Shown here: in pieces, positions 8,057 through 36,967 of the stretch
Position numbering within the stretch: position 1 is the stretch's first letter
How the letters are laid out: every line of letters begins with the position of its first letter
Assembly: GCA_019429005.1 (NCBI GenBank)
Contig: JAHYJR010000008.1
Coordinates: 1 to 39,100, forward strand
Length of the DNA stretch: 39,100 bases
Origin: Nanobdellati archaeon
GTDB taxonomy: Archaea; EX4484-52; GLR71
Reading direction: 5' to 3'
Program-made: the position numbers and the translations under genes
The notes under the pieces: generated by a model
Databases searched by the model: none
What the model saw: the letters and a program-made list of their open reading frames with translations, nothing else
What the model was told of the DNA's origin: nothing

Positions 8057-8067
8057 ACAGTTCACAC

Positions 8068-8116: not shown

Positions 8117-8428
8117 TCAGCAAGCTGCTTGTATACCACCACACTGTGCTTGCCATGCAGTACATGTAACACCATTATATTTCAAACTATCTGCATTATA
8201 TGTACCTTGTGTTGAACAACCAGACATTATCTGAAGATTACAATAAGATACTGCTGTAGAACATTGTGCTGCTACAGAAGATTCATTTGATTGCATATCC
8301 GTTCTCTTGAAAAAGTTTCCAAGACCACCTGACACGATTGTTATCACTACAAGACTTATAACAATCAATACAACTGCTGTTATGACAAGAGTCAAAGCAG
8401 CGCTCATACCTTTATTATTATTGACCAT
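8117..8428 (-). CDS. Type IV pilin-like protein, candidate major pilin
   Basis: NNKG/MSAAL class III cleavage site, ~25-aa hydrophobic helix, 6 Cys; has its own BRE-TATA promoter and terminator. Confidence 0.85.
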   Translation of the reverse strand: MVNNNKGMSAALTLVITAVVLIVISLVVITIVSGGLGNFFKRTDMQSNESSVAAQCSTAVSYCNLQIMSGCSTQGTYNADSLKYNGVTCTAWQAQCGGIQAAC

Positions 8429-8481
8429 AAAAAATCACAAAATTTAAATTGATTAATAATATGATATAGATTAAGGCACTA

Positions 8482-8499
8482 TATAAATATTTCGGTTAT
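8482..8499 (-). promoter_or_regulatory. BRE-TATA promoter ATAACCGAAATATTTATA
   Basis: Matches archaeal BRE (CCGAAA) plus TATA box, 54 bp upstream of ATG 8428; identical copy at 38093-38110. Confidence 0.75.
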
Positions 8500-8511
8500 A
8501 TATATATTTAC

Positions 8512-8832
8512 TCAACAAGAACTAGGCAGTCCACCACAAACATCATTCCAACTACCCAAACCAGTACAAGGTTTATTACTATACTCAAGATTATCACCGA
8601 TAAAATTACCGCTTGATGCACATGCAGAATTTATCTGAAGATTACAAAAAGATACCGCTGTAGAACACGTTAAAGCGTTATTAGAATTATTTGATTGTGT
8701 ACTAGTTCTCATAAAGAAATTATCCATACCACTTGAAACAATAGTAATAACAATAAGGCTCACAACAAGCAATATAACTGCAACTATGATGAGCGTCAAT
8801 CCGGCAGTCATACCTTTTTTGTTTTTAAACAT
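8512..8832 (-). CDS. Type IV pilin-like protein, paralogue of 8117-8428
   Basis: KKG/MTAGL site; shares VSL.VITIVS.G..NFF.RT..QSN.S and CSTAVS.CNLQI; 6 Cys. Confidence 0.85.
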   Translation of the reverse strand: MFKNKKGMTAGLTLIIVAVILLVVSLIVITIVSSGMDNFFMRTSTQSNNSNNALTCSTAVSFCNLQINSACASSGNFIGDNLEYSNKPCTGLGSWNDVCGGLPSSC

Positions 8833-8884
8833 CAATTATCACATCTTACAATTTTATTATTTTACACCGATTTAAATATATGAT

Positions 8885-11800
8885 TTAAGTCTCAACAGAA
8901 TCTCTCAAAACCCCAAAATATACACACCTCTGATATTCATTATTATCCGGCAAATTACAATCACCTACAAAACAATCAACGAAATTCAGGAAAGATGACA
9001 AAAGCGATGTTCTAACTTCCGTAAAGGAATCATATTTACAAACTTCAGGAGCTTCAAAACCCCCAATATCAACTGGTGCACCAATAGGAATAGCTCCAAT
9101 TATAGATTCATTTATTATAGCACCAGGTCCATCGTTCACCTGAATATAAAATCCAATTGATTTATCTGTTGGATGCCCAAAATTATCAAAATAACCATCC
9201 TCCCTAAGCATAGTCACGCTGATATAAACAATAATAGGATGATCTATCCAATAATACCTAAATGCCCGCATCTCACAATCCTCAACCTGCCAACACGTGC
9301 AGGATTCTCTGATACTAGCAGTCTGATCACAATTTGTATGAATTGAAACTTTTTGATCGCACGCTAATATATTAGTCCAAAAAGGTTGTGGTTTAACACA
9401 AAAATTTGTATTGCCACAACAATCAGAAGGACCTGTATTTGTATAATTACAACAATTACCAATACCATTACAATTATCTTTATTTAAATCGGCAGTATAA
9501 CCAGGATATGAACCATAAATAGTACAATCAGAATCACAAGTATTTGGAAGATCTGCATTAGGTTTCCAACAAACAATATTATTTAAATTATTATCCCACG
9601 TATAATCATTTTCACAACAACCATTATCATTATAACAAGTACTATAACGATTAGGGTTTGCTTTTATTGTATTAGGCTCATTAATATCTTCAGGATATTC
9701 ACAACAACTATTATCCTTCCAACACATTTGAAGAGATTCATTAGTATCTGCTCGTGGTGTAAATGCACGATAATTAGGTGTTACAAAAAATGTTGAATCA
9801 TCATAACAACCCGGAGAATCCACAGTATTCACAATCGAAGCATCACAACATACAGAATTACTACAATTCAAGACATTTAACGGTCGTTTATAATCTAAAA
9901 ATAATTCACTTTTGATATAACTCGCTTTCCACTCTTCCGCTTTTATCAAGCTCTGTGCTTCTGTATCATCTATACTTATACCCAATTCTGCAAAATTAGT
10001 TGGAACAATTTCCATAACAACTTTATAATCGGTCGTACTCAAACTTTCAGCATAGATATCAAGAGCAATTTGTAACCCTTCAAGATTTGCATAATGAGGT
10101 ACATGCTGATTAACACCTGCTTTAGTAAAATCTTTAGAAAAATCCGTAATAATATTTGAAAAATCAGTACAATCTAAATTATTTTTAATATAATTATCTA
10201 CATTACCATATATAAGTTTTAACCAAATAAGGCTATTACTATATTCTTCAACAAGTTGTGCCTCAATAACATCACATACAGACTGCTTTTCCGGAAAACC
10301 GAGATACCTATCAGAAGTCTCAAGAAGTGATAAACTTGGACAATGCTGTCGATACTTAAGGTGTGTAGATGTTATATGAGTATTATATGTTAAACCCGCG
10401 TCATCACAAGTAAGAATATTGTCATCAGTCATATCCCACTGATCTTGCCACTGATCTCTCCAAAGTTCCATTTCTTTGCGTAATACTATTGAAATCTGCT
10501 CACCTGAAGAAGAATCTAATTCATCTTCAACGAGTTCTTTTGCAAAATTATAAAGCTCTGGAAGATTTGTATCCATCGTAATATTATAAAGAAAATTATT
10601 TGTTATTGCCGTATCAGATAACTCTTTAGAGATACCATTATATGACGCACATGTCGCAATAAGTTTCCCACCACCAACATCAACTAAACTCTGTAAAGTT
10701 ACAGTCTCTGCATAATTTTCAGTATATTCTAATCTAATATCTTCAATAATTGGTATATAATTGACATCATAAGAAACCATATCAATCTTATACTTTAAAT
10801 TCGTCAAAACACCTGGATCTGTTCCAGTATCTATAATAGAATCATTTGTAACCTCATGCCATGTTGCACCATCATTAACAGATACATTTACCTTAATATC
10901 GCTAACCTTCGGATATAATTGTATTGCATCCCACGAACCATATAATGTTGATGATGCTGAAATATCACCAATAAATAAAAAGAACTTACCATACCGCACA
11001 TCAACCTCACCAAGGTCAACCCACTCAGAACCCAATCCTGCAGAAACAGATACCTTTCTATCTGGAACGGGATTAGAATATGAATACGTATATGTTAAAG
11101 CATCTGAATCTTTATGTAAAAGTGCTAAAACCTTATATTTGCCATTCAAAACATCAAGACTTATATTTACAATTGGAAGTATTTCGTCTGTACAACCAGC
11201 AATTGAAATATTATTAAAAGGTGAAGGGCTGTATGTTGAACTTGAAATATTAGTCCAATTATCATCTGTACAATTAAGAACATTCGGAAATGTAGTACCT
11301 TCTAAAAAATTATATTCAAACTCATATTCATTAGGCTGTAAATTATAATGTGTCTCGCCATCCCATTTAACTTTAACAAATATAATTGGATTTGTTGCAA
11401 TAATATTTTCAGATTCATAAGTACCATGGAAACTATTTATTATATCAACCTCATTAACCGTACTTGTAAAATATTTGTCTGTAAGATTGCTTTTCTCAAC
11501 CCAGCCAAATGATAATTTTACAAAATCTGTATCAGGATAAGAAATACCACCTTTTGCTAACCAAGTCAAACCATCAGAACTCTCAAAAACATTGTAACGT
11601 CCTCTTAAAACTTCAAACTTTAGGTATTTGTCACTTGGACAAACCACATTTGTCTGATATACAAAATTTGAACTATCTCCAGTACCCCAACTATAACCAT
11701 ATTTTTCACTAACACTATCTTTCAATAAAGTCTCAGAACTATCAGTTACGGCTGCCCAAAAATACACAGGATTAGTGTCTGCAAGATTATTTCCAGAATC

Positions 11801-12616
11801 ACAATTTAATTTTAATTTATAATTGACAACATCACCAATTGGAACCGCTCTTGGAACTTTCTCAATTATTTGATATGAATTATTAAGCAAATCATCAGAA
11901 CCTACCCAACTTATACCCGAACCCATAGAAATCTTATTATTTTCATCCAAAACGATATCCCATTTTGAACTATCAAGACTACCTAAATCAAATATATCAT
12001 ACGACGGCACCAAAACAGGATTAAGCTCCAATTGTGTACCTGTACTTAAAATATTATCAAAAATAGCACCAGTTGTTGACCAATCAGCATCATCATTTGA
12101 TATATCTGTCTTTGGAATATAAAATTGCTTACTTGGTTGTTCATCAGATCCAAAAAGAATATACGGAATTGCAATTTGTTTTTGAAGAATCATTGTAAAT
12201 GCTTTATCTATATTTTTAAGCATATCTGGACCAATATCTGTACCTACAACAGTTTCAGGAAATACAGCACCATCTTCATAAAACCAAAATGGAGCAAAAC
12301 CGTCATAAGTATCTATATCCCCAGAACCCTCTTTTTCTTCCATTGTATCAACATAATACCCTCCAGCTTTAGTCACTTGATCAAGTGCCATCTTAAGAGA
12401 ATACTCACAAATATTTTTTACCTTAAAAGCCCGAACTTCCTGTGTTTTTATATCAGACTGTATGATTTTTTGAGAATTATAATCTGCAATTTCCTCAGAA
12501 CCTATAAAAATCATCCAATTAAAAGTACTCATAATAACATAAAAAATCATTACAATAGCAAGTACAGTCATGATTTCACTCATACCTTTTTTATTTAATC
12601 CACCTTTTTTTTTCAT
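8885..12616 (-). CDS. Giant pilin-like adhesin (~1,243 aa) with Cys-rich C-terminal region
   Basis: NKKG/MSEIM plus hydrophobic helix; acidic, beta-rich middle; many Cys and CC pairs in the last ~330 aa. Confidence 0.8.
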   Translation of the reverse strand: MKKKGGLNKKGMSEIMTVLAIVMIFYVIMSTFNWMIFIGSEEIADYNSQKIIQSDIKTQEVRAFKVKNICEYSLKMALDQVTKAGGYYVDTMEEKEGSGDIDTYDGFAPFWFYEDGAVFPETVVGTDIGPDMLKNIDKAFTMILQKQIAIPYILFGSDEQPSKQFYIPKTDISNDDADWSTTGAIFDNILSTGTQLELNPVLVPSYDIFDLGSLDSSKWDIVLDENNKISMGSGISWVGSDDLLNNSYQIIEKVPRAVPIGDVVNYKLKLNCDSGNNLADTNPVYFWAAVTDSSETLLKDSVSEKYGYSWGTGDSSNFVYQTNVVCPSDKYLKFEVLRGRYNVFESSDGLTWLAKGGISYPDTDFVKLSFGWVEKSNLTDKYFTSTVNEVDIINSFHGTYESENIIATNPIIFVKVKWDGETHYNLQPNEYEFEYNFLEGTTFPNVLNCTDDNWTNISSSTYSPSPFNNISIAGCTDEILPIVNISLDVLNGKYKVLALLHKDSDALTYTYSYSNPVPDRKVSVSAGLGSEWVDLGEVDVRYGKFFLFIGDISASSTLYGSWDAIQLYPKVSDIKVNVSVNDGATWHEVTNDSIIDTGTDPGVLTNLKYKIDMVSYDVNYIPIIEDIRLEYTENYAETVTLQSLVDVGGGKLIATCASYNGISKELSDTAITNNFLYNITMDTNLPELYNFAKELVEDELDSSSGEQISIVLRKEMELWRDQWQDQWDMTDDNILTCDDAGLTYNTHITSTHLKYRQHCPSLSLLETSDRYLGFPEKQSVCDVIEAQLVEEYSNSLIWLKLIYGNVDNYIKNNLDCTDFSNIITDFSKDFTKAGVNQHVPHYANLEGLQIALDIYAESLSTTDYKVVMEIVPTNFAELGISIDDTEAQSLIKAEEWKASYIKSELFLDYKRPLNVLNCSNSVCCDASIVNTVDSPGCYDDSTFFVTPNYRAFTPRADTNESLQMCWKDNSCCEYPEDINEPNTIKANPNRYSTCYNDNGCCENDYTWDNNLNNIVCWKPNADLPNTCDSDCTIYGSYPGYTADLNKDNCNGIGNCCNYTNTGPSDCCGNTNFCVKPQPFWTNILACDQKVSIHTNCDQTASIRESCTCWQVEDCEMRAFRYYWIDHPIIVYISVTMLREDGYFDNFGHPTDKSIGFYIQVNDGPGAIINESIIGAIPIGAPVDIGGFEAPEVCKYDSFTEVRTSLLSSFLNFVDCFVGDCNLPDNNEYQRCVYFGVLRDSVET

Positions 12617-12638
12617 AAAAATCATATCAATAATTTAT

Positions 12639-13337
12639 TTAAACAGTACAAATATTATAATTTATAAGTATATCTTCAAATGTGTCGCTATATGCAACAA
12701 CATGAGTATCATACTTATATGCAATACCACAAAGATCTTTAAATTCGTCAGTACAAGTACCATTTATATCCAGTTTATTTTCAATACAAACTTCCATATT
12801 TAATACAGGTATTTCAATCCAACGCGGAGAATCTTCTATAATTTGTGATGCCTGTAATGCAATCCGTATACATCTTTCAAGATCAATAAAATGGGATGGC
12901 ACATTTTCACTTTTATATGCTACAAAATTAGGAGTAACCTTATTATAACCCTCATCTACATCATAACCATAAATAGGTAATTTAACACTATACTGTGTTT
13001 TGACAATACCTATCCATTTACTTAATGGAAACTTATATGGATCTCTAGTATAAACAAGTTCACGATCCTCACAAGAATCTTCATCCTGTTCAATTATACA
13101 TTTTATATATTTAACTTCAACAATTGGACACATATTAAAATTAAGCAAAGTATAAAGCTCAGTCTGTGTCGATGTGATCATATCAGATATGTCCATAATT
13201 CGCTCATATTTCTGCTTATTATATTCAATTATAATTGTACTCATAACAACAACAACCATAACGGCAAGAATTATAACTGCAGGACCTAATATATTTTCAA
13301 GCCCTTTTTTTCGATATAATTTACGCACATAAATCAC
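12639..13337 (-). CDS. Minor pilin-like protein
   Basis: RKKG/LENIL plus hydrophobic helix; start may be the GTG at 13328. Confidence 0.8.
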   Translation of the reverse strand: MIYVRKLYRKKGLENILGPAVIILAVMVVVVMSTIIIEYNKQKYERIMDISDMITSTQTELYTLLNFNMCPIVEVKYIKCIIEQDEDSCEDRELVYTRDPYKFPLSKWIGIVKTQYSVKLPIYGYDVDEGYNKVTPNFVAYKSENVPSHFIDLERCIRIALQASQIIEDSPRWIEIPVLNMEVCIENKLDINGTCTDEFKDLCGIAYKYDTHVVAYSDTFEDILINYNICTV

Positions 13338-13343
13338 CTATCA

Positions 13344-13901
13344 TTAATTCCTAAAACCAAAATCCATTTTTGCAATATAAAAATCATCATCAACCCGTAC
13401 ATTAACAAGTTTAGTTATCTTTTCTTTTTCTGTAAACTCACTCATTATATGAATACCAGAACTTGTAGATAATTCACAAACAGGATTTGATCCAGTACAA
13501 GTCTTCATAACATACAAATTAGTATCAAAAGTTGGATATAATAAATACAAATCGATTGCCCAATCCAACCCTGGACCTATACACTTTTCAATATTAACTT
13601 TAAATTTGCCAGAGGTATCTATTTTTGAATAATTAAATATAAATTTATCACGATTTCCACCATCATCAAGAGATATTAAATCTTTACAACTAAGCATCTG
13701 ATAAAGAGCAATTTGACCAATTGATTTATTGTCAGAATCATCAACACTTTTTGTAAACACATAATTTGTAGATTTCATATGCATTATAAAAAAAACAATA
13801 ACAACCATAAACATTATACCCATTATGGCATCAGTACTGATTGAAAACTGACCTTTTGATGTTTGCCGTCGTGGCATTAATTTCAATTTTTTAAAAAACA
13901 T
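13344..13901 (-). CDS. Minor pilin-like protein
   Basis: TSKG/QFSIS plus hydrophobic helix. Confidence 0.8.
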   Translation of the reverse strand: MFFKKLKLMPRRQTSKGQFSISTDAIMGIMFMVVIVFFIMHMKSTNYVFTKSVDDSDNKSIGQIALYQMLSCKDLISLDDGGNRDKFIFNYSKIDTSGKFKVNIEKCIGPGLDWAIDLYLLYPTFDTNLYVMKTCTGSNPVCELSTSSGIHIMSEFTEKEKITKLVNVRVDDDFYIAKMDFGFRN

Positions 13902-13915
13902 TATATCACAAATAA

Positions 13916-14791
13916 CTATTCAGATTTTATACTAAAACTATTTTCAAAATCAAATGTATGGATACTACCATCAAATTTAGAATCGGCTGAAACATAGATT
14001 TTATAAAAAGTATTATCTTGAAAATCATAAACATATTTCAAAACATTAATAGGTCCCTCAGCATAATGTAAAATTTCGGCATAACATCCATTTTTATTTG
14101 CTCCAGAAGTTGCCTGCCCCACAATATCATCAAAGTAAACTTCAGTATAAATCCCTGTTGCTAAATCAGTTATATTTAAAAAAACAGTATCATTTACAAA
14201 TTTCATATTTTTACCAAATATAACAGCAACACAACCAGGTATATTATTTGCAATACTTGAATTAATATTTTCTGTTGGCGTTAATGATAAAGGTGGCGTG
14301 TCAATCTTTGAAACTTTATATGCTGCATTAGCATCATCTGTAACCCAAAAATGAGTCTCATTTTTGCTAAAACAAATTTCACGTTTACTTTTACTTCCTT
14401 CTTCCCAATTAAACATTCTAGGAGTATCCATAAAGATTGTATCTTCAAGAAGATGAACCTTTTTCTGAGCCCAAATATTATGGCCACCATACATAACTTC
14501 AACACGCACACTGTCATGTGTAATTATTATTTTTGCATCAGCTCTTGTATCAACACAAAGTACCCCCTTATCTACAGTTGAAAGCAACATCATAACGGCA
14601 TAAATATTCCCTGCAGACATCTCAACTGCAGCCTGAAGTGTGTCAGCACTTTCAGTCATAATTTCACCAATAACGGGAGTCATAAGTAATAAAGCAACAA
14701 CAATAAGACCAATTTTGATCATAGGATAATCCATAAATCCTTTTTTAGAAACATTAAAAGATTTTAAAAACATCCAAAAATTATAATTCAT
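13916..14791 (-). CDS. Minor pilin-like protein
   Basis: SKKG/FMDYP plus hydrophobic helix; ATGA overlap with the upstream gene. Confidence 0.78.
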   Translation of the reverse strand: MNYNFWMFLKSFNVSKKGFMDYPMIKIGLIVVALLLMTPVIGEIMTESADTLQAAVEMSAGNIYAVMMLLSTVDKGVLCVDTRADAKIIITHDSVRVEVMYGGHNIWAQKKVHLLEDTIFMDTPRMFNWEEGSKSKREICFSKNETHFWVTDDANAAYKVSKIDTPPLSLTPTENINSSIANNIPGCVAVIFGKNMKFVNDTVFLNITDLATGIYTEVYFDDIVGQATSGANKNGCYAEILHYAEGPINVLKYVYDFQDNTFYKIYVSADSKFDGSIHTFDFENSFSIKSE

Positions 14792-15996
14792 ACAATATCA
14801 TCCTTTGCTATATATACATTACCTGCAAGAGATATATTAATTTGTTCTATTTGATATGGCCAGATAACAGGAACAGGATACATATAAATCATAAAATCAT
14901 CAAAATCACCATCATCATTCAAATCCATATTAATGGCGGCCTCATACACATTATAAACAATCCTAAAATCATCTATTGACGGTAACATCCCAACACCAAC
15001 TACAAAAGAATAACTATTATAAGCATCATAATATAAAATCACAAAATCATCAATATCACCATCAACATTATAATCTAAACCAACACTACTTTCATTAATA
15101 AAATAAACAAAAATATGAAAATATCTGTTTGGAATTGGTCCAATTATTGGAAGAATTTCTCGAGAACTCATATTATATTTTGCATTAATAACGCCATCAA
15201 AAAAAGCATCACCATCAATATCATAACCTAAATAAGCTTCATTTGTTTGAAAATAAATAAGATTTTTATATAACTTAGGCACATTACCCTCAATACCCGT
15301 ATTTATAGTTCTTCGTAAAACAATATCATAATATTGTATAACATTATCATCAATATCGCCATCCTGATTCAAATCATAACCAGCCCACATTTCGGGTGTT
15401 GAAAAGACTATTTTTGAATCCACCATATGAGGATACATCCCAAATTCATAAGTATTATATACCACTTGAGATGTAATATTATAATACCTAATATAAGTTG
15501 GAACCTGTTCAAGTGATGTAATTTCAAAATCAAACATACGTGTATTGGCAGACAAATCAGTATAAAAAGATTGAAATGCTACAACATCACTAAAAAGAGA
15601 TGGATTGAAACCAGATAAATCTAGAACCGTTTCCGTATTATCTGTTAAATTATAATAAGCCAAAATCAAATCAATCTTATCAAGATCATTATTATAATCT
15701 TTAATTTTAACTTCTTCAGAAACATAATATGCTATAAGATTACTATAAATTGATGGATACATACCCTCAATACCAAGATTAACACGCAAACTTTTTGAAA
15801 AATCAATATCATCAATAGTCTCTATCTTTTTAAAATCACCAATATCTCTACCAATATTAGGTTCAGTATTATCAAAAGAATCTGACAAAAATTGCAACTT
15901 GCCCGTATCAACACCAAATAAAATAACTAATTCAATAATAAATAGAGCAATAAGAACAAACCTACTCTTTTTTGAAAAAATATTGATATGCATCAA
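14788..15996 (-). CDS. Membrane-anchored repeat protein, probable beta-propeller with DxNxDGD Ca-binding-like loops
   Basis: N-terminal anchor; ~50-aa repeats G..P.I....I.F...E.....D.N.DGD.DD.VI.YY. Confidence 0.75.
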   Translation of the reverse strand: MMHINIFSKKSRFVLIALFIIELVILFGVDTGKLQFLSDSFDNTEPNIGRDIGDFKKIETIDDIDFSKSLRVNLGIEGMYPSIYSNLIAYYVSEEVKIKDYNNDLDKIDLILAYYNLTDNTETVLDLSGFNPSLFSDVVAFQSFYTDLSANTRMFDFEITSLEQVPTYIRYYNITSQVVYNTYEFGMYPHMVDSKIVFSTPEMWAGYDLNQDGDIDDNVIQYYDIVLRRTINTGIEGNVPKLYKNLIYFQTNEAYLGYDIDGDAFFDGVINAKYNMSSREILPIIGPIPNRYFHIFVYFINESSVGLDYNVDGDIDDFVILYYDAYNSYSFVVGVGMLPSIDDFRIVYNVYEAAINMDLNDDGDFDDFMIYMYPVPVIWPYQIEQINISLAGNVYIAKDDIV

Positions 15997-16074
15997 AATT
16001 ATTTAGGTCTAATCCTATAAATACATTAGATATAACTTCATTAAATATAAAAGCAACTCAATCCAAATAAATGT

Positions 16075-16422
16075 ATGACTGTAAATTCACAACCCATAAA
16101 TCTAATAAATATCACTCAAATCACACAACATCTCAAAATAAATCTTATGTTTAAACTAGACCTATTTAAAATAACTTCAAATATAATCTGGACAAAATGG
16201 CTCACATTCACATCAAGTAAACTTGTCATTAAAAACCGTAAAGGTGAAATGACAATAAATAAGATTATTGCAATACTACTCGGCCTTGTTGTTGTAGCTC
16301 TTACTGCAAGCTTATTTATATCCCTGAAAACTAAAGCTACAGGAAGTATAAATTGTATTTGCACACCCGCCTACTCAGGAATAGTACCTCCTGGCTGTAA
16401 AAATACTATAGCCTGCCCATGA
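16075..16422 (+). CDS. Short pilin-like protein with long leader
   Basis: NRKG/EMTIN plus hydrophobic helix and 4 Cys; start uncertain (16075 or 16147). Confidence 0.75.
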   Translation: MTVNSQPINLINITQITQHLKINLMFKLDLFKITSNIIWTKWLTFTSSKLVIKNRKGEMTINKIIAILLGLVVVALTASLFISLKTKATGSINCICTPAYSGIVPPGCKNTIACP

Positions 16423-16445
16423 TAATAATTTAATGGTAGATAATT

Positions 16446-16703
16446 ATGATATTTAAAAAGAAAAGAAAAGGTATAGAACAGTCAATATGGCTCATAATGG
16501 TAGCCGTCATATCACTTATAATTGCATTAATCATCATAACCATGTTTAGTAGCAGTTTTGAAACAACCCAAAAACATTCTTCAGAATCTATAAATAACAG
16601 TGCAAACAGCCTTGAGTGCACAAGAATCTGCAGAACGTCATGTATAACAAATGGTGAACCTGATAATAGTGGCCCTGGATGTTCAGGATGTACCTGCTTA
16701 TAA
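16446..16703 (+). CDS. Cys-rich mini-pilin
   Basis: KRKG/IEQSIW, hydrophobic helix, CxxxCxxxC...CxxCxC. Confidence 0.85.
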   Translation: MIFKKKRKGIEQSIWLIMVAVISLIIALIIITMFSSSFETTQKHSSESINNSANSLECTRICRTSCITNGEPDNSGPGCSGCTCL

Positions 16704-16724
16704 CATATTTAATTAGGTAATCAT

Positions 16725-16994
16725 ATGACAAAAAAAGCATTATCTGCAGCAGTATGGTATGTAATGGCAATTATGCTTGCAATACTTATGGTCCTTGTAC
16801 TGGTTAATGTGTTTGGTAAAAGTATGGAAATGGCTGGCAATACAACAAAAGAAACCATAAACATGTCATTCACACCAATCCAATGTATAGCCGAATGTAA
16901 TATATGCTGTTCAGATCCAAACGAACAGGATTGTAGTAATCTACCCTCCGAGTGTTCCTGCGATGATACAGATACAAGAAATCCTGGATGTTAA
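16725..16994 (+). CDS. Cys-rich mini-pilin
   Basis: TKKA/LSAAVW, hydrophobic helix, CxxxCxxCC, 8 Cys. Confidence 0.85.
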   Translation: MTKKALSAAVWYVMAIMLAILMVLVLVNVFGKSMEMAGNTTKETINMSFTPIQCIAECNICCSDPNEQDCSNLPSECSCDDTDTRNPGC

Positions 16995-17004
16995 AGGTGT
17001 TATT

Positions 17005-17286
17005 TTGAAACGAAAAGGTATAGAACAATCAATATGGCTTATAATGGTCGCAATAATATCTTTGATTATGGTACTTATACTTATGACACTTTTTAGCAGT
17101 TCAATGGAAAAAACAGGTGTTGAAAGCCAAAAATCAATAAACTCAACAGGAATATCAATAAAATGCACAATCGCATGTAAACAATGCTGTGTTTCACGGA
17201 TAGAACCAGATTGTAAAGACTTTGTAAATAACAATTACTTAGGTTGCACTTGTGTTGATTCAGACACCTCCGAAGTCGGATGTTAA
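17005..17286 (+). CDS. Cys-rich mini-pilin
   Basis: KRKG/IEQSIW, CxxxCxxCC, 8 Cys; TTG start at 17005 after AAGGTG preferred to 16963. Confidence 0.85.
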   Translation: MKRKGIEQSIWLIMVAIISLIMVLILMTLFSSSMEKTGVESQKSINSTGISIKCTIACKQCCVSRIEPDCKDFVNNNYLGCTCVDSDTSEVGC

Positions 17287-17309
17287 CAAATTAAATCAAA
17301 GTGATAATT

Positions 17310-17618
17310 ATGAATTTAAGAAAAAATATAATTGAAAAAAAGCGTAAAGGAATAGAACAAGGTATTTGGCTGATGATGGTCATCGTATTGTGCCTTGTTA
17401 TCGCACTAACACTTATAACAATATTTAGAAGCGGAACAAAAGAAGCTGGAAACCAGACAAGCCAAGGTATAGACCAAAGTGCAGGAGGTGTATATGATGT
17501 TCTTGAAATTTGCGGCTGTGTAGGTGGTGTTTGTACGGCTAGTTGTAATTGTCAACTAAAGTCGTCTTGTCCATCATCACCACCATGTTCCAGTTCATCA
17601 GATTGCACAAGATCATAA
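17310..17618 (+). CDS. Cys/Ser-rich mini-pilin
   Basis: KRKG/IEQGIW, hydrophobic helix, 8 Cys in the tail. Confidence 0.85.
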   Translation: MNLRKNIIEKKRKGIEQGIWLMMVIVLCLVIALTLITIFRSGTKEAGNQTSQGIDQSAGGVYDVLEICGCVGGVCTASCNCQLKSSCPSSPPCSSSSDCTRS

Positions 17619-17628
17619 GTGATTAATT

Positions 17629-17961
17629 ATGAAACAAACAAAACCTCAAAAAAAAGCAATGAGCCAAACAATATGGCTTGTAGTAGTCGTAATTATCTCA
17701 CTTTTATTAGTTCTTGTGCTTGTTGAATTTTTCACAAATGGTAGCGAAAAGATGCGAGATACATCAAGCGATCTTAATGAACAGACAGGAAACGCCATGA
17801 TATGTTCAGTCAAATGCAGTACTTGTTGTACTTTAGAAAGTGCTACGTGTGCAGACAATACGGCTAAAGATAGTGTTCCTGGTATGAGCTATGACAAAAT
17901 GATAGTCAACGGAATTACTTGCCCACTAATGAAAGATTGTGCTTACACTTGTTGCTGTTAA
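17629..17961 (+). CDS. Cys-rich mini-pilin
   Basis: QKKA/MSQTIW, CxxxCxxCC, 10 Cys, ends in CCC. Confidence 0.85.
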   Translation: MKQTKPQKKAMSQTIWLVVVVIISLLLVLVLVEFFTNGSEKMRDTSSDLNEQTGNAMICSVKCSTCCTLESATCADNTAKDSVPGMSYDKMIVNGITCPLMKDCAYTCCC

Positions 17962-17978
17962 AAAAAACTATATTGTGA

Positions 17979-18755
17979 ATGGATATGAAAATAACACCAA
18001 ACATGATAATCAAACTGTTTCTTTTGCTTTTATGTGGCTACAGCCTTCTTGAATCCGAAAATATAGACCACAAAAAAGACACAACACCAAAAACAACAAA
18101 AAAACGTAAAGGTCAACAAGAAGTCGCAAGTGTGCCAGAAATGGCATTAAGAATCTTAATTCTAGTTTTTATCATAGCTATAATAATTAAATATTGGGTT
18201 GTTGGTATCAATATGATATTACAAGTCCTTTTCAAATTATGGCATTTTATTGATCAATTTAGATGGGGTATCTCGTTAGGATCAACAATAGTTTCATACA
18301 AACATGCAACATATGCAGCAATACTTTTTGCATCTGCGACCGCACTAACTGCCTCAGGTATAGGTATTGGGGCTGCCGCGATTTTAACCGATATGGCAAT
18401 AGACCAATTAATAGAAGCCGGATTATGGGGTGCAATTACACAATTAATAACCACATTCAATATATACTCAGACATTGAATTTGGATCTCCTACAAATAGA
18501 GATGAAGAATGTGTAATTAAATGCTTTAATTATTGTGCAAACACAATCAACTCAGCAATAATTAAATTAAATTACACAGATACGTCAGGAACGGATAAAG
18601 AATGTAAAGATAATTGTAATTGTGGTCTAAGAACATTAGAAAACCAAAATATGGGTGGATATGTAGGAACTTTTGCTGAAATACTCCAAGATAGTGGTAC
18701 AGCAGCAATAGATACAATCACAAAAATAACATCGGGTTTTACAAGTATATTCTAA
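17979..18755 (+). CDS. Pilin-like protein with extra hydrophobic segments
   Basis: N-terminal hydrophobic stretch, then KRKG/QQEVA plus helix, an Ala/Gly-rich segment, and CxxxCxxxC...CxxxCxC. Confidence 0.75.
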   Translation: MDMKITPNMIIKLFLLLLCGYSLLESENIDHKKDTTPKTTKKRKGQQEVASVPEMALRILILVFIIAIIIKYWVVGINMILQVLFKLWHFIDQFRWGISLGSTIVSYKHATYAAILFASATALTASGIGIGAAAILTDMAIDQLIEAGLWGAITQLITTFNIYSDIEFGSPTNRDEECVIKCFNYCANTINSAIIKLNYTDTSGTDKECKDNCNCGLRTLENQNMGGYVGTFAEILQDSGTAAIDTITKITSGFTSIF

Positions 18756-19936
18756 GATGTTAATTTTACCCATTTTATAACATAACTATCTAATAAATAA
18801 TTTTCAAAATCAGTTTCATTTACAGTTTCAAAATTAGTAATAAAATTAGATACTTCATTATTATCATAATTATAGTCATGCCACACCATAAGATCACCAG
18901 TTTCTGTTATAAATGGTCCAGTACCAGAAAGCCCCGTATTAACAACCGTACCCCCTATAATATTTGCATATAATATAATAGTATCTAATATATCACCATT
19001 TTGATTAAAATCAATACCAAACGTTGTTTCTTTTACAGAAAAAGGCATATTATAATTAAAATTAATAGACTTGTAATCATCTTCAGACATTAAAATACCT
19101 GTAGTACCTGTCAATAAATTATAATATCTTAAAATATAAGATATTAAATAGGTGTCAAGATCAACATCATTTTCAACAACAAGTTCATTTGTTATAAATA
19201 CAATATAATCGTCATATATCCTAGAATTAATACCCTCAAGACCGGTATTTACAAGACGACCTGATGTTATATTATAAAATGCAATAACAGAATCCTCAAA
19301 ATCACCATCATTTGTAATGTCATTATCATACGATTCAAGAAGCTGAAATGTTATAATATCTTTAAAAATAAATGGATTAAAACCTTCAATTACAGGTATA
19401 TCAAGAAACTGTTTAGAGGATATATTATAGATTAATATTACAGAATCCTCTTTATCTGCATCAAGATTAAGATCTTTATTTACTTTAACTTCAAAAGCAT
19501 CAAAAACTATTAAATCCTCATAAATTGAAGGATACATACCCTCAATACCCGTATTGAAAAGTTGTCCAGAGGATATATTATAATATTGTATAATTACATC
19601 ATCAAAATCAAAATCATTATTTAAATCTTCAATAGACATTTCTTCAACAGTCATAAAAACAATGATATCACCATATGCTTTTGGCATAATACCCTTAATA
19701 TCTGTTGATACACCTTTCAAATTAGCTTTATTATATATTATATCTTCTGGAAGCCAACTACCATTATCTTCAATAATTGGAATATTTTCAAAATCAGACA
19801 TTAAGTCAAAAAAAGGATCATTATCAATACTTGAATTTTGAGGTGTCCATAAATATACAAATATTAAAAAAACAAATAAAATCAATAGTATTTTATTAAA
19901 AACAGTTAATTTATACTTTTGAGATATCATATCCAT
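18752..19936 (-). CDS. Membrane-anchored repeat protein, paralogue of 14788-15996
   Basis: Shares GIEGMYPSIY, GFNP, NTGIEG and DxNxDGD repeats. Confidence 0.78.
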   Translation of the reverse strand: MDMISQKYKLTVFNKILLILFVFLIFVYLWTPQNSSIDNDPFFDLMSDFENIPIIEDNGSWLPEDIIYNKANLKGVSTDIKGIMPKAYGDIIVFMTVEEMSIEDLNNDFDFDDVIIQYYNISSGQLFNTGIEGMYPSIYEDLIVFDAFEVKVNKDLNLDADKEDSVILIYNISSKQFLDIPVIEGFNPFIFKDIITFQLLESYDNDITNDGDFEDSVIAFYNITSGRLVNTGLEGINSRIYDDYIVFITNELVVENDVDLDTYLISYILRYYNLLTGTTGILMSEDDYKSINFNYNMPFSVKETTFGIDFNQNGDILDTIILYANIIGGTVVNTGLSGTGPFITETGDLMVWHDYNYDNNEVSNFITNFETVNETDFENYLLDSYVIKWVKLTS

Positions 19937-20020
19937 ATTAATTAATTGCTTTTAATAATATAAAAAGCTATCAAAAAACTTCAATAATTATAAAAGCAAT
20001 TAAAACTAAATACAAAGATA

Positions 20021-21310
20021 ATGATAACTTCCACAATTAAACAAAAAAACAAAAAAAAAGGCTTAACTCCTGCAATTATCGCAATCATGGGTTTCGGACT
20101 AATTCTTACAACATTTGGTATATTTTCATTTATAAAATCAACACAATTAGGTGGCGAATTTATGGAAAATTTAATGGGTTATCAAAATCAAAAATGCGTT
20201 GAATCATACACAAACCCAAAATATACAGAAGACAAAAATGATATGTATGATAAAGCAATAACAAGAGAAACCGCAAAAATGTTATGTGAAATGGAAGCTA
20301 AAAAAACTGATGGTTGGTTAAGATGTTCCTTTGACTGGAATCAAGTTAAAGACAAAATGGTTGGAAACACTCTATATACCGGATTGACTTGCATGGCCAT
20401 ATCTGGAGATAGTAATAATGTTATATGCACAGGTGCTGCTTCTGCATTTTTAGCAGCCGGTGATATATTTAGCACAGCGATAAACACAAAATGCACAACA
20501 ACCGAAGATACATATGCAGGTATAAGGGGTAGTGATGGTTATAAACGAGCAATATTAGTCAAAATCATCGCCGAAGAAGGCGTAGAGACTGTTGGTATCT
20601 TAACTTTAGGTTCTGCAATTAAAGGTGCAATTGATATCACTGAAGCCACACAAGCAAGCAGAAATCTTGCAACAATGTCTGCAGATGATATTGCAACGAA
20701 AGTGACAAGACTAAATTATAAACAATATGTCACAGCAACTGCATATCAATTAAATGGAATAAGAAATGAAATAAAAGCACTAACACTTAAAATAGCTCAA
20801 CAAGAAGCTCTTGTAGGCAAAATGCTTTATGAGGGTTCTTATAGTGCTACACAATTAACAGATGCAAAACTATTATTATCGAGCCACAGAACAGAATATA
20901 AACGATTATTACAGATAAACAGCGAATATTGGAAACAATTTGAAAGACTTAGTAAAATATTACCTACAGGAAATATCGGATCAGTACGAAAAGTAGCAAC
21001 AAACACATTAAGAACTCTTGAAAATACTCAAAATTTAAAAACAGCATACCAAGCCATAGATCTTGCAGCATCTACAACAAATTTTATTGATTCTGTAAAA
21101 AAGGCAGGACCAGCTACTAATTTTTTACGATTCGGAATACCTGCATTAGGTGCTTTAAGTTCCGGTGTTGTAATTGCAGCTGTTGCAAATCCGGGATTAC
21201 TACCAGATCATCTTGAAACAGCATTAAGTTCGGTAAATCCCTTTGAATCAAAATTAAGACTTTTTGATTACGCTTACGATATGGTTCACATTATAAGATC
21301 AGGAGATTAA
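20021..21310 (+). CDS. Large helical pilin-like protein with coiled coil and hydrophobic C-terminal segment
   Basis: KKKG/LTPAI plus helix, 6 Cys, heptad stretch LNGIRNEIKALTLKIAQQE, FGIPALGALSSGVVIAAVA. Confidence 0.75.
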   Translation: MITSTIKQKNKKKGLTPAIIAIMGFGLILTTFGIFSFIKSTQLGGEFMENLMGYQNQKCVESYTNPKYTEDKNDMYDKAITRETAKMLCEMEAKKTDGWLRCSFDWNQVKDKMVGNTLYTGLTCMAISGDSNNVICTGAASAFLAAGDIFSTAINTKCTTTEDTYAGIRGSDGYKRAILVKIIAEEGVETVGILTLGSAIKGAIDITEATQASRNLATMSADDIATKVTRLNYKQYVTATAYQLNGIRNEIKALTLKIAQQEALVGKMLYEGSYSATQLTDAKLLLSSHRTEYKRLLQINSEYWKQFERLSKILPTGNIGSVRKVATNTLRTLENTQNLKTAYQAIDLAASTTNFIDSVKKAGPATNFLRFGIPALGALSSGVVIAAVANPGLLPDHLETALSSVNPFESKLRLFDYAYDMVHIIRSGD

Positions 21311-21312
21311 AA

Positions 21313-21762
21313 ATGACCCAAAAAAAAGGCAGCATGTTCACAATGGAAAACACAGTAATACTCATAATTGCAATCTTATCTGTAGCATTCATAATCAAAG
21401 CTGGCTTCGCATACCAAACAAGACTTTATACACCACCAATGTGTGTTGATACAGATATTGAACCACCTGTGACCTATGACATAGATTCCTGTTGGACTGA
21501 TAATAAAACAGGATTTGATTTAAACTATACTTGTAGTATAAATAGACAAATTATTGAATGTGGTAAAATACTTAGTGATTCGGCTGGAACCTGCACATAC
21601 GGTTCAGGCTGCGATTGTGTTAAAGGGGGTCAGATTTATCCAATCCATTCTTGCAGAGATGTTGCAGGAACAAATTACAGCTGTGAAAGAAGCAGAAGAT
21701 CACCATACCCTGAAATGATTACTTGTTCAGGATTATGTCACGAAACAATAGGATGTGTTTAA
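21313..21762 (+). CDS. Cys-rich pilin-like protein
   Basis: QKKG/SMFTME plus helix; 12 Cys. Confidence 0.82.
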   Translation: MTQKKGSMFTMENTVILIIAILSVAFIIKAGFAYQTRLYTPPMCVDTDIEPPVTYDIDSCWTDNKTGFDLNYTCSINRQIIECGKILSDSAGTCTYGSGCDCVKGGQIYPIHSCRDVAGTNYSCERSRRSPYPEMITCSGLCHETIGCV

Positions 21763-22075
21763 AAAAAAATCTTACCGAAAAGTATTAATTAAAATAAATA
21801 TAATGATTATTATGACACCATTAATATTCTTCTTTGAAAATATTAAATTGAGAGCAATATTATTAAAAACTAGAAAAGGTGATACCGGCTGGGGTATGAA
21901 TCAGATGATGACTATAATTCTTATACTTCTTGTACTTGCTATGGGACTTATGGTTTTTAGTAAAGTCAGTGGACAGACAACAGCATGGGGTTGTGATTTT
22001 TCAAACAGCCTCATAAGTAAAGTCGCCGCACTTGAAGTCTTTGGTATGGATTCTGAAACAACACGGGTTTGTTAA
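21755..22075 (+). CDS. Short pilin-like protein with long leader
   Basis: TRKG/DTGWG plus helix, 2 Cys; start uncertain. Confidence 0.75.
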   Translation: MFKKKSYRKVLIKINIMIIMTPLIFFFENIKLRAILLKTRKGDTGWGMNQMMTIILILLVLAMGLMVFSKVSGQTTAWGCDFSNSLISKVAALEVFGMDSETTRVC

Positions 22076-22272
22076 TTATGCTAATACGACCATTATTATA
22101 CATAATCGCACGCAAACGAAAAGGTTCAATAGAACTAGATAGTGTTTTTAAGATTGTTCTATCTGTAATAATGCTCGCTGGAGTTCTAATATTCTTACTT
22201 GCTATGAAAGGTGGATTTCTTGATGGTAGTGTCGCAAGTATAAACAGCACATTAAATAAAACATTGATATAG
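22069..22272 (+). CDS. Minimal (Flp-sized) pilin-like protein
   Basis: KRKG/SIELD plus helix; ~48 aa mature; start may be ATG 22078. Confidence 0.75.
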   Translation: MLIMLIRPLLYIIARKRKGSIELDSVFKIVLSVIMLAGVLIFLLAMKGGFLDGSVASINSTLNKTLI

Positions 22273-22284
22273 GTAAAACCCATT

Positions 22285-22482
22285 ATGACAAAACAAAAAA
22301 AAGGTGCAATGGAAATAAATACTATGATGAAAATAATCCTTGTCATTTTAGGAATCGGCGTACTTGCAATATTACTTAGTATTATGAACGGAAATCTTCT
22401 AGGAGATAACGGTGTTGTATCCGAACTTGCAAACGCAAGCAACATGACAAATATGATAAACAAAAATAATTGGCAAATTTGA
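22285..22482 (+). CDS. Minimal (Flp-sized) pilin-like protein
   Basis: QKKG/AMEIN plus helix; ~58 aa mature. Confidence 0.78.
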   Translation: MTKQKKGAMEINTMMKIILVILGIGVLAILLSIMNGNLLGDNGVVSELANASNMTNMINKNNWQI

Positions 22483-22494
22483 AACAATTAGTTC

Positions 22495-33809: not shown

Positions 33810-33865
33810 AACTTATATATGATACACGTTATAATAAATATTATTGTATTAAATATGTGATATTA

Positions 33866-34273
33866 ATGGTAGATTTTCAAAACACTCAAGATTTAAAAGA
33901 ATTTATACCAGAGATATCAAAACGAATAAATGAAAATGTACAAAGAATACGGTTACTTGAAGAAAGTATAAACAGCATTGAATCAAGGATAAACACAATT
34001 GAACAAAATTTTATTGAATTCGCTGAAGAAAATAACAAAAATAAAAATCATACAACTTCAGATTTATCTGAAATGCGCGATAAAGTTATCAATCTATCTG
34101 TAGATGTACAAAAAATAAATAGACTTACTGGAAAACTAGCAAACAAAAATGACATAAAAGAAATTCAAGAATATGTTAACCTTATTATGCCAATGACAAG
34201 TAAATTCGTGACAAAAAAAGAAACTGAAACAATGATAAAAGAAGCAATAAATCAGCAAAAATATAATCTTTAA
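33866..34273 (+). CDS. Cytoplasmic coiled-coil protein
   Basis: Heptad pattern RIRLLEESINSIESRINTIEQ; no signal peptide; divergent from the ATPase. Confidence 0.75.
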   Translation: MVDFQNTQDLKEFIPEISKRINENVQRIRLLEESINSIESRINTIEQNFIEFAEENNKNKNHTTSDLSEMRDKVINLSVDVQKINRLTGKLANKNDIKEIQEYVNLIMPMTSKFVTKKETETMIKEAINQQKYNL

Positions 34274-34284
34274 ATGGTGTTACT

Positions 34285-35055
34285 ATGGATAAATACAAAT
34301 TTGAACTTTTTGGAAAACTGAAAAAACAGACAACAGACCAACAAGCATCAGTCACACAATCTGCAATGACACATAATTTACAAATACCATCAAACACACA
34401 ACAAATACCAACAGAATTAATAACACAATTATCATCACAAGGTTTAAGTGAAGCTGAAATAATTAAACAACTTAAACAAAAAGGTTACTCTTTCGGACAA
34501 ATTGATCAAGCACTTAACGCAACACTAAAATCAAGTATAGATAATCGACCCGTAACACATTTAGGTGTATTTAACAACACACAATTCAATACACAACCAC
34601 AAGCAATACAACAACATCAACAACCAAATATGCAACAACAAATACCACAAAGAACAGATAGTATGCTTGAAGCACATATTGAAACAATTGTTGAAGAAAG
34701 ACTTGAAATGCTTAAAAACACAATTGAATCAATCGAAAATGCTCTTGAGAGAACACACGAAGAGATTGATAACCTAGATATATCAATGAAACAACTTGAA
34801 AAACGTAATCAAGAAACCATTGAAATAATATCTAATAAATTTGACTCTCTTGATACTAAATTTGATAATATTAACCCAAAAATTGTAAGCATTGAAAAAG
34901 CATTCAAAGATGTGATTCCAAATATCATAGACAATATGCGTGAACTAACAGAGATTGTTAAAAAAGAAAAACATGTAGATATCGATATGTCAGAGATAAA
35001 TATAGATAAACCCATAACGTCTAACGAACAAAGAAAAGATACCGAAAACGATTAA
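34285..35055 (+). CDS. Coiled-coil protein with small helical N-domain and Gln-rich linker
   Basis: QGLSEAEII.QL.QKGYS..QIDQAL, Q/P-rich linker, long heptad region, SIEKAFKDVIP. Confidence 0.78.
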   Translation: MDKYKFELFGKLKKQTTDQQASVTQSAMTHNLQIPSNTQQIPTELITQLSSQGLSEAEIIKQLKQKGYSFGQIDQALNATLKSSIDNRPVTHLGVFNNTQFNTQPQAIQQHQQPNMQQQIPQRTDSMLEAHIETIVEERLEMLKNTIESIENALERTHEEIDNLDISMKQLEKRNQETIEIISNKFDSLDTKFDNINPKIVSIEKAFKDVIPNIIDNMRELTEIVKKEKHVDIDMSEINIDKPITSNEQRKDTEND

Positions 35056-35553: not shown

Positions 35554-35599
35554 AAGTATTATATGTCGCCTTGATATTTAAATGTTTTGGAATTACTTA

Positions 35600-36854: not shown

Positions 36855-36914
36855 TAGATTAAGACATATAATAATATACAATCGCTGAATACTTAAAGAT
36901 TTTAAAATTTTGAG

Positions 36915-36943: not shown

Positions 36944-36967
36944 ATCAATGAGATTATTTTTACTAAA

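Follow-up and report, generated by a model that had tools for sequence, protein, structure and literature searches.

Several archaeal type IV filament (T4F) systems can be set beside the locus described here. The Epd locus of Methanococcus maripaludis comprises 11 genes, several of them for minor pilins, and at least five minor pilins are described for clade-1 loci (PMC13705601, PMC4858521), so that a first-pass annotation went too far in stating that only a few pilins are used by characterised archaeal pili. System-1-type pilins are reported in 1990 Nanobdellati genomes, where pilins are described as scattered away from the ATPase and platform genes and hard to assign (PMC13705601), and in related lineages the pilins are reported as not annotated (PMC9563170). 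Cluster-2 DPANN archaea have conserved loci that combine a CpaF-type ATPase with TadC and coiled-coil proteins (Hamm et al. 2024, PMC11291902); that account describes the motor module and gives no pilins for one of its two loci.

The locus lies at positions 8117-22482 of the window, meaning the whole stretch of 39,100 nucleotides that was analysed. The source genome is of DPANN type and 1.08 Mb in size, and its relatives are Nanohaloarchaea, Aenigmatarchaeota or Nanobdellati MAGs, in keeping with the DPANN-like organism suggested at first pass. The region is likely to be a T4F pilin island, which provides the substrates and accessories of the filament but no motor. As described for Epd and archaeal T4F ‘system 1’, many genes with class III signal peptides are gathered in one locus, and as with Epd these include large adhesin-like class III proteins (PMC13705601, PMC4858521). 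The major pilin of Epd is also very short and lacks a globular domain; in size, the mini-pilins of the island are Flp/Epd-like. Unlike the Epd locus, which is described with an ATPase of its own, a pair of platform genes and a dedicated peptidase, the island has none of these, and it holds 18 prepilin-like genes against a handful at Epd, with no sequence match to curated Epd or pilin models (Pfam; NCBIfam on three proteins). The pilins of Thermoproteales subsystem 4E have conserved cysteines, and the likeness to the island lies in components that are nearly all Cys-rich and presumed disulfide-stabilised, and in pilin genes that sit away from the motor genes (PMC4858521, PMC13705601). Subsystem 4E, however, belongs to another lineage and its pilins have a C-terminal domain, whereas the small pilins of the island are predicted to be a minimal helical subunit with a CxxxCxxCC-type cap.

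Twenty consecutive ORFs span the island (ORF map and N-terminal read-out; Table 1), arranged in four transcription-unit-like blocks with intra-block gaps of -8 to 83 nt by ORF coordinates. They encode seven small Cys-rich pilins, four mini-pilins, seven larger pilin-like proteins including a 1246-aa giant, and two beta-propeller-like paralogues. A prepilin-type site, consisting of a short basic leader ending in K/R-G/A and followed by a hydrophobic helix, is present in 18 of the 20, the exceptions being 14788-15996(-) and 18752-19936(-). This bears out the 18 of 20 counted at first pass and supports the class III (prepilin-type) signal peptides proposed there; the predicted mature sizes, from 48 aa (22069-22272) up to 1232-1238 aa (8885-12625), likewise agree with the range of ~48 to ~1,235 aa given earlier. 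The site was defined by a relaxed rule, a custom regular expression rather than FlaFind, that requires [K/R/N/S][K/R][G/A] with a hydrophobic stretch downstream, no more than 14 residues away, in which at least nine of 15 residues are A, I, L, M, F, V or W and no more than one is charged. Elsewhere in the genome, with a crude greedy ORF set of the whole genome as background, the relaxed rule picks out 40 of 1164 ORFs, giving an enrichment in the island of about 250-fold as an odds ratio (Fisher p ~3e-23). Genome-wide the relaxed motif occurs on 55 of 1182 ORFs, including a 3708-aa ORF on contig C10, and a stricter rule retains 37 of 1182, with 10 of those 37 in the island. The greedy caller chose an antisense ORF (22011-22487) over the three smallest island genes; other genomes contain weak relatives of two of these (E about 1e-4 to 3e-5).

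Other features accompany the motif. An acidic residue (D/E) is found by eye at +1 to +7 in 13 of the 18 motif-positive proteins, and 16 have one N-terminal hydrophobic segment only, when the first segment of 21755-22075 is discounted as lying upstream of the proposed TTG start. The two with extra segments (17979-18755, 258 aa; 20021-21310, 429 aa) are atypical pilins, and the former is possibly a membrane component instead. The leaders of 16075, 17979 and 21755 are uncertain because there is no canonical start codon near the site or TTG is required. Cysteine makes up 1.4-9.1% of residues in 16 of the 18, compared with 1.26% genome-wide, and at least 2.2% in 13; the two smallest have no Cys.

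Table 1. Island ORFs and neighbouring T4F-related genes in the window (↓, predicted cleavage site)
Coordinates	Strand	Feature	Length	Leader	Other details
8117..8428	-	small Cys-rich pilin	103 aa	MVNNNKG↓	6 Cys; paralogous to 8512..8835 (54% id); orthologues in relatives, E 6e-20
8512..8835	-	small Cys-rich pilin	107 aa	KNKKG↓	6 Cys
8885..12625	-	giant pilin-like	1246 aa	KKKG or NKKG↓	one hydrophobic helix after the site; 38 Cys
12639..13337	-	pilin-like, candidate minor pilin	232 aa	RKKG↓LENIL...	8 Cys
13344..13901	-	pilin-like, candidate minor pilin	185 aa	TSKG↓QFS...	
13916..14791	-	pilin-like	291 aa	SKKG↓FMD...	weak relative G032:C64, E 5e-6
14788..15996	-	non-pilin, beta-propeller-like			N-terminal membrane anchor; 0 Cys; paralogue of 18752-19936; ~50-aa repeats with D-x-N-x-D-G motifs; 150-nt repeat period in DNA
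16075..16422	+	mini-pilin	~58 aa mature	NRKG↓EMT...	start codon uncertain
16446..16703	+	small Cys-rich pilin	85 aa	KRKG↓IEQSIW	
16725..16994	+	small Cys-rich pilin	89 aa	MTKKA↓	
16963..17286	+	small Cys-rich pilin	107-aa ORF	KRKG↓IEQSIW	likely TTG start at 17005, giving 93 aa; AF2-modelled
17301..17618	+	small Cys-rich pilin	105 aa	KRKG↓IEQGIW	9 Cys
17629..17961	+	small Cys-rich pilin	110 aa	QKKA↓MSQTIW	10 Cys
17979..18755	+	motif-positive, atypical	258 aa	KRKG↓QQE...	three hydrophobic segments
18752..19936	-	non-pilin, beta-propeller-like repeats, membrane-anchored	394 aa		0 Cys
20021..21310	+	motif-positive	429 aa	KKKG↓LTPAII	helix-rich by eye; second, weak hydrophobic segment 368-386; orphan among 7 syntenic loci compared
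21313..21762	+	pilin-like	149 aa	QKKG↓	12 Cys
21755..22075	+	mini-pilin	~64 aa mature	TRKG↓DTG...	TTG start probable
22069..22272	+	mini-pilin	48 aa mature	KRKG↓SIELD	weak relatives in genus g3, E 3e-5
22285..22482	+	mini-pilin	58 aa mature	QKKG↓AMEIN	weak relatives, E 7e-5
29422..31587	-	T4F platform, candidate partner machinery	721 aa		Pfam T2SSF
31548..33809	-	T4F secretion ATPase	753 aa		Pfam T2SSE; TadA/FlaI-like, below family cut-offs
33857..35055	+	two coiled-coil protein genes	138 and 256 aa		adjoin the ATPase in relatives too

None of the 20 island proteins matched the curated Pfam pilin models (Pilin_N, Class_IIIsignal, Arch_flagellin) at E<=0.1, and none of the three scanned matched the NCBIfam pilin models. 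This test is insensitive here, since only two of ten other pilin-like proteins of the same genome gave Pilin_N or Arch_flagellin matches, both sub-threshold, which shows that curated pilin models miss essentially all pilins of the lineage. The small Cys-rich pilins have a predicted mature length of 76-100 aa (48-64 aa for the mini-pilins), and their profile finds members in 41 of 41 genomes (set A1) and 42 of 42 phylum genomes (set A3), at 1-11 copies per genome and often in tandem. As the family is present in all 42 phylum genomes, a profile with which to find it now exists. Within a family alignment of 36 sequences the Lys at -2 is at least 90% conserved, and by eye the -1 column is G or A in nearly all rows. 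The AF2 model made with these 36 sequences (pLDDT 72.5) shows a helix spanning 4-64, then a short one at 70-77, such that the small pilin is predicted, with moderate model confidence, to be mostly helical. Foldseek returned no pilin structure with this model, its sole match having an E of 6.9, and no Pfam domain was found on the 86 database proteins matched by the family.

The giant, which contains a Cys-rich region at about 920-1120, is a candidate modular pilin or adhesin. No relatives were found apart from one 227-aa fragment with 55% identity to its C-terminus. It has no PDB match and no Pfam match, even as four pieces at E<=10, and neither the whole protein nor the pieces contain a beta-propeller or DUF2341 domain according to Pfam; Atlas gives only a ConA-like lead (0.79). 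In genus g3, analogues of the giant score 21.7 bits, weakly above the cut-off of 20, for an NHL/beta-propeller repeat, with no single stretch passing alone. The idea of several mid-sized candidate minor pilins beside a very large candidate adhesin recalls the bacterial minor-pilin/PilY1 tip complexes (PMC8179133, PMC4858521), and the modular pilin PilB of Streptococcus sanguinis is described as a pilin moiety fused to a functional module (PMC8179133). Unlike PilY1, the island giant carries a pilin-type N-terminus itself, and there is no sequence relation and no detectable domain.

Similarly laid-out islands occur within the same family (G003:C90, G002, G004, G008 and G032). In the first of these, 20 kb contain 13 motif-positive ORFs, and the genes follow one another as a non-pilin of ~430 aa, pilins of ~180 and then ~240, a giant pilin of 1443-1521 and a small Cys pilin. 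Comparison of the large island proteins with their positional analogues detected no similarity (phmmer; hhalign probabilities 0.1-1.1%), so that ‘synteny’ rests on the small pilins together with size, order and motif. A shared layout without similarity could reflect non-orthologous replacement. The K/R-G/A site is kept in the family alignments and also in positional analogues that are otherwise diverged beyond recognition. No published characterisation of an orthologous locus was found in a literature search.

No match to T2SSE, T2SSF or Peptidase_A24 was obtained for any of the 20 island ORFs, and the last of these domains has no match within the window either, as had been noted before. The sole genomic match to Peptidase_A24 (PF01478) is at C10:122020-122376 (37.6 bits against a cut-off of 26.5), and its ORF can be aligned with FlaK (structure 3S0X) so that both Asp residues coincide, at what we take to be the catalytic positions. 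Lack of a prepilin peptidase had been named as grounds for refuting the pilin assignment, an argument that fails given that the genome has one. The suggested search for further ATPases yielded five T2SSE matches clearly above the cut-off, each paired with a T2SSF platform, and one marginal ATPase. One pair is indeed found, by Pfam T2SSE and T2SSF, 6.9 kb from the island, where about 7 kb had been stated. Its ATPase has orthologues in 41 of 41 genomes of the order, at 54-72% identity over the full length, and the coiled-coil genes are kept beside it in 12-15 relatives' loci; these genes, previously thought perhaps to work with the island, belong to a conserved ATPase module and not demonstrably to the island. 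With a platform, an ATPase and two coiled-coil proteins, window positions 29422-35055 have the exact composition given by Hamm et al. 2024, as matched by description (PMC11291902). The pilin island is a separate block 7 kb from this module and is not co-located with it in relatives: in six relatives whose contigs are long enough, no pilin island was found within ~14-20 kb of the ATPase/platform orthologues on the side examined. Hence the link between the island and the nearby pair, which had been proposed from proximity, is unproven.

For a T4F pilin island, the following scheme can be envisaged. Each of the 18 precursors would insert into the membrane via its N-terminal helix, and the single A24 (FlaK/PibD-type) peptidase encoded on C10 would cleave after K/R-G/A. 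One of the five or six ATPase/platform pairs, acting in trans, would then polymerise the mature subunits by helix packing. Candidates for the filament body are the seven small pilins, predicted to be mostly helical with a C-terminal cap rich in Cys, and the mini-pilins. The giant and the pilin-like proteins of 149 to 291 aa are candidates for minor or modular pilins, which might prime the filament or form its tip and bear modules for binding. The beta-propeller-like pair, anchored in the membrane, would serve as accessories. Adhesion to surfaces or to a host cell would be the most likely use, and the ‘tip complex’ and ‘kit of host-recognition filaments’ of the first-pass annotation may be understood in the same conditional sense. 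The island is probably a parts kit for adhesive surface filaments. Its biology is an elaboration of the known T4F scheme, of which it is an unusually large and unannotated example. Little is known about the means by which DPANN archaea recognise their hosts and keep hold of them; the locus offers a concrete, testable parts list, and its fast-diverging large pilin-like proteins are natural candidates for host specificity.

More tentatively, the island could be the pilin set of the order-wide CCP-ATPase-TadC machine of cluster-2 DPANN, with small Cys-capped helical pilins as the body and a fast-evolving tip module; the island would then determine host specificity, evolving in an arms race at the interface of symbiont and host. 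The tip module would here be the three mid-sized pilins and the giant modular pilin, whose position and size are kept between species. The small helical pilins would be a phylum-wide family, previously unrecognised.

It is unlikely that the island serves surface display rather than a long filament. In that case the class III signal would act as a route for export and anchoring, and the cleaved proteins would form a short pseudopilus or stay at the membrane and present binding or enzymatic modules, much as in the bindosome of Sulfolobus or in the ‘functionalised T4F’ put forward for substrate-binding proteins. Class III signal peptides are described as widespread on binding proteins (Sivabalasarma and Albers 2026, PMC13705601), and the spread of the relaxed motif through the genome, up to the 3708-aa ORF, is consistent with such a role, as are the seven island proteins that far exceed the size of a filament subunit and the sub-threshold match (65 bits) of the ATPase at 31548..33809 to the bindosome ATPase BasE. 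However, 11 of the 18 are tiny (48-100 aa when mature), with no space for a binding module, and as a phylum-wide, multi-copy family they fit structural subunits. Moreover, Pfam finds no substrate-binding-protein domain in any island protein.

Somewhat less likely again is a competence-type DNA-uptake or nutrient-scavenging pilus in place of a host-attachment organelle. Pilus-mediated DNA import is hypothesised for related DPANN (PMC9563170), and one database homologue of the small pilins is named ‘competence protein ComGC’ by its source, but this is an automatic label on one of 86 matches. No DNA-binding or ComEC-type component was seen in the 20 island proteins and the other window ORFs scanned, and adhesion is where a pilin-like protein of such size and Cys content would more typically be expected. 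Finally, it is very improbable that these are ordinary type II (signal-anchor) membrane proteins with no T4F relation, in which K/R-G/A arises from the positive-inside rule and chance: the absence of curated pilin-family matches and the several hydrophobic segments of two members would suit this, but under the search rule all 18 have G/A immediately after a basic residue, while the site is missing from the island's two genuine signal-anchor paralogues, and both its retention across family alignments and diverged positional analogues and its enrichment in the island tell against this reading.

The island of 20 consecutive open reading frames (ORFs) between positions 8117 and 22482 of the window is best read as a type IV filament pilin island without a motor. 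The genome that carries it is 1.08 Mb in size, is divided among 15 contigs and is 93.5% complete, with a G+C content of about 30%, and archaeal housekeeping genes for Nop56/58, fibrillarin, RIO kinase and MetRS are found within the window, which is contig C12 in its full length of 39.1 kb. The phylum is represented in the genome collection by only 42 species genomes, all of which come from one order. The 20 ORFs are arranged as four tight blocks that resemble transcription units (see the table), with gaps of -8 to 83 nt within blocks. A search of the island for invertible or phase-variation repeats returned only paralogue and blade repeats.

Coordinates of the island blocks and of the other features discussed (window positions unless a contig or locus is named)
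Feature	Position	Strand	Content
Block 1	15996 down to 8117	minus	seven genes
Block 2	16075-18755	plus	seven genes
Block 3	18752-19936	minus	one gene
Block 4	20021-22482	plus	five genes
Motif-negative paralogues	14788-15996; 18752-19936	minus	two genes
Giant pilin-like protein	8885-12625	minus	1246 aa
Class I SAM methyltransferase	7427-8065	minus	
Antisense ORF	22011-22487	minus	158 aa
T2SSF platform	29422-31587	minus	721 aa
T2SSE ATPase	31548-33809	minus	753 aa
Platform, ATPase and two coiled-coil genes	29422-35055		
Membrane-protein paralogues	35077-38762	minus	six genes, 158-197 aa
Eighth small pilin	G000:C14:86-433 (L110)		
Large ORF of the same genome	G000:C10:128230-139356		3708 aa
ATPase/platform pairs with adjacent pilin-like genes	C11 ~186-194 kb; C13 ~54-63 kb; C15 ~12-16 kb		
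Subtilases of genus g3	L087:15529-19545; L092:1824-5879		~1340 aa
DsbD_2/FmdE genes of G003:C90	L091:2804-5517		
Membrane paralogues among pilin-type genes, G010:C1	L062:12553-14761		

The first-pass annotation had described a cluster of prepilins, and this is borne out: 18 of the 20 ORFs encode a [K/R/N/S][K/R][G/A] site followed by a hydrophobic stretch, with predicted mature sizes from 48 to about 1235 aa. Outside the island the same rule picks out 40 of 1164 ORFs in a crude genome ORF set (Fisher p ~3e-23), and a stricter rule retains 37 of 1182 ORFs genome-wide, ten of them in the island. A single hydrophobic segment directly follows the site in 16 of the 18 proteins, extra segments are present in those of 258 and 429 aa, and the starts of three island genes, those at 16075, 17979 and 21755, are uncertain. 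None of the 20 proteins matched the curated pilin models. Since these models also miss most of the other pilin-like proteins of the genome (only two of ten controls gave even sub-threshold matches), this failure is more informative on the models than on the genes.

Directly adjoining the island is the gene for a class I SAM methyltransferase. The antisense ORF, probably not a real gene, runs across the three smallest pilin genes; a gene caller that favours the longest ORF would be expected to choose it and miss the genuine ones.

The motif-positive proteins fall into three classes, the first of which consists of seven small paralogues of 85-110 aa with 6-10 cysteines within the last ~40 residues, where they form a CxxxCxxCC-type cap. 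An eighth copy lies on C14, a contig of 3.9 kb that may be part of another such island. A profile of the family finds matches in 41 of 41 relatives and, once enlarged to 36 sequences, places the family in all 42 genomes of the phylum, with 1-11 copies per genome that are often in tandem. In a collection of 5.8 billion proteins, 86 match the family at E<=1e-5; none of these contains a Pfam domain, and most are unnamed or 'hypothetical', although one is called ComGC and one lies in a record labelled Patescibacteria. An AlphaFold2 (AF2) model built from the 36-sequence alignment (pLDDT 72.5) predicts a long helix at residues 4-64 and a short one at 70-77; a Foldseek search of the PDB with this model was uninformative, returning nothing comparable. 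The second class comprises four mini-pilins with mature lengths of 48-64 aa, and seven larger proteins, 149-1246 aa long, form the third.

The largest of these, the giant, has one pilin-type N-terminal helix and 38 cysteines, with a cysteine-dense stretch at approximately 920-1120. Comparison with forty relatives gave three marginal short matches only (E 1.7e-5 to 3.8e-4), none of them across the body of the protein, and a word-based search of the 5.8 billion proteins found just the giant itself. HMMER run in full against 1.84 billion representatives added a single fragment of 227 aa, with 55% identity to the C-terminus. Nothing meaningful came from a sequence search of the PDB, and the protein in four pieces had no Pfam match at E<=10. 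Its Atlas score of 0.79 is a lead only, with no reliable match. As far as sequence searches go, the giant is an orphan.

The two motif-negative proteins are paralogues of one another (29-37% identity), both with an N-terminal membrane anchor, no cysteine and repeats of ~50 aa that appear in the DNA as a 150-nt periodicity; one of them contains D-x-N-x-D-G motifs. An AF2 model of the 394-aa protein, made from four sequences (both paralogues and two database relatives), has a low overall pLDDT of 56 with a confident all-beta core at residues 80-250, and was used, alongside the periodicity, for the fold class of its matches only. Foldseek returned 76 matches at E<=0.001 with TM ~0.3, and all of the top ones are beta-propellers, including TolB, Kelch and acylaminoacyl-peptidase propeller folds. 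With moderate confidence, the pair can be regarded as membrane-anchored beta-propeller-like proteins.

Comparable islands are found in g3, a genus of the same family, on contigs G003:C90 (13 motif-positive ORFs within 20 kb), G002:C4, G002:C17, G004:C26 and G008:C121, with a fragment in another family (G032:C64). Their gene order of a membrane-anchored non-pilin (~430 aa), pilins of ~180 and ~240 aa, a giant pilin (1436-1521 aa) and a small Cys pilin mirrors the minus-strand block of the window, whilst a second module, composed of small pilins divergent from mini-pilins together with a ~400-aa pilin, mirrors its plus-strand blocks. Detectable homology with the related islands is confined to the small pilins, with E values as low as 6e-20, and, more faintly, the mini-pilins, two of which have weak relatives in g3 at E 3e-5 to 7e-5. 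Orthology of the mid-sized and giant proteins is not claimed, because hhalign comparison of the g3 positional analogues with the 185-, 232-, 291- and 1246-aa proteins of the window gave no significant match; these proteins have either diverged extremely fast or been replaced.

The g3 islands are broken up by unrelated genes, read by eye as including those for a prolyl-tRNA synthetase and an ATP-binding protein. Two also hold a subtilase gene, which has no counterpart in the island of the window; the domain scan covered the L087 copy, which has a Peptidase_S8 domain and weak cadherin-like/Big_9 matches, and the L092 ORF was taken as its equivalent from its size and place in the island. In the G003 island, genes for a DsbD_2+FmdE fusion and an FmdE protein separate the giant from a small Cys-rich pilin, and their products may act as a thiol-redox helper; with this pair as query no homologue was found in the window's genome, which is 93.5% complete.

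The genome-wide search proposed in the first-pass annotation for a prepilin peptidase and further ATPases returned a single Peptidase_A24 gene on C10 and five clear T2SSE ATPases, together with a sixth that is marginal. In an alignment of the 295-aa peptidase to the FlaK structure 3S0X both aspartates coincide, and T2SSF platform domains lie next to each of the five clear ATPases. Three of these ATPase/platform pairs are accompanied by pilin-like genes of their own, and AglB is also present. An ATPase/platform pair does lie some 7 kb from the island, as had been pointed out, but the linkage is not conserved: among six relatives with enough contig, none has a pilin island on the equivalent side of the pair within ~14-20 kb, and only G010 has a small pilin gene group, ~12 kb away. 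Synteny thus gives no support to this pair as a dedicated motor for the island, and the assignment was rejected. Assigning a motor by elimination fails as well, since two other ATPase matches, C11:19.6k and C8:105k, are also without a nearby motif-positive ORF.

The window pair, whose ORFs overlap by 40 nt, is conserved to an unusual degree, with orthologues of 54-72% full-length identity in each of 41 genomes out of 41, and two coiled-coil genes adjoin it in the loci of 12-15 relatives. On sequence comparison, these four genes are an order-wide conserved module, which fits the composition of the 'CCP + CpaF + TadC' loci of cluster-2 DPANN described by Hamm et al. 2024 (PMC11291902). A contig in a record titled Campylobacterales bacterium (L098) is probably mis-binned or mislabelled, because its ATPase is 70% identical to the archaeal one of the window.

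For the motor-less pilin island, the single A24 peptidase would cut the precursors and the products would be assembled in trans, an arrangement reported as typical of Nanobdellati in PMC13705601. The small pilins and mini-pilins are likely to form the filament body; for the giant and the mid-sized proteins, a likely role is that of minor or modular pilins with an adhesive function, by analogy with the minor pilins and PilY-type adhesins outlined in PMC4858521 and the modular pilins outlined in PMC8179133. The island products may serve in host attachment. The cysteine enrichment parallels that of the Cys-rich Thermoproteales pilins (PMC4858521, PMC13705601). Archaeal loci that combine several pilins with adhesins and Cys-rich components are already known. 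What is new is the scale, with 18 prepilin-like genes and no motor, the phylum-wide, unannotated family of minimal helical Cys-capped pilins, and the contrast of that family's conservation with large proteins whose divergence cannot be traced. No published description of such a locus type was found, the supplementary locus and arCOG tables of PMC13705601 and PMC11291902, which might include relatives, lying outside the search.

Two further surface or membrane candidates were observed. The six tandem membrane-protein genes of the window are paralogous (pairwise E down to 1e-87), and in G010:C1 two of their homologues are interleaved with two pilin-type genes, a hint that the family is functionally linked to pilins. 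The 3708-aa ORF on C10 has a class-III-like N-terminus and is a candidate giant surface protein.
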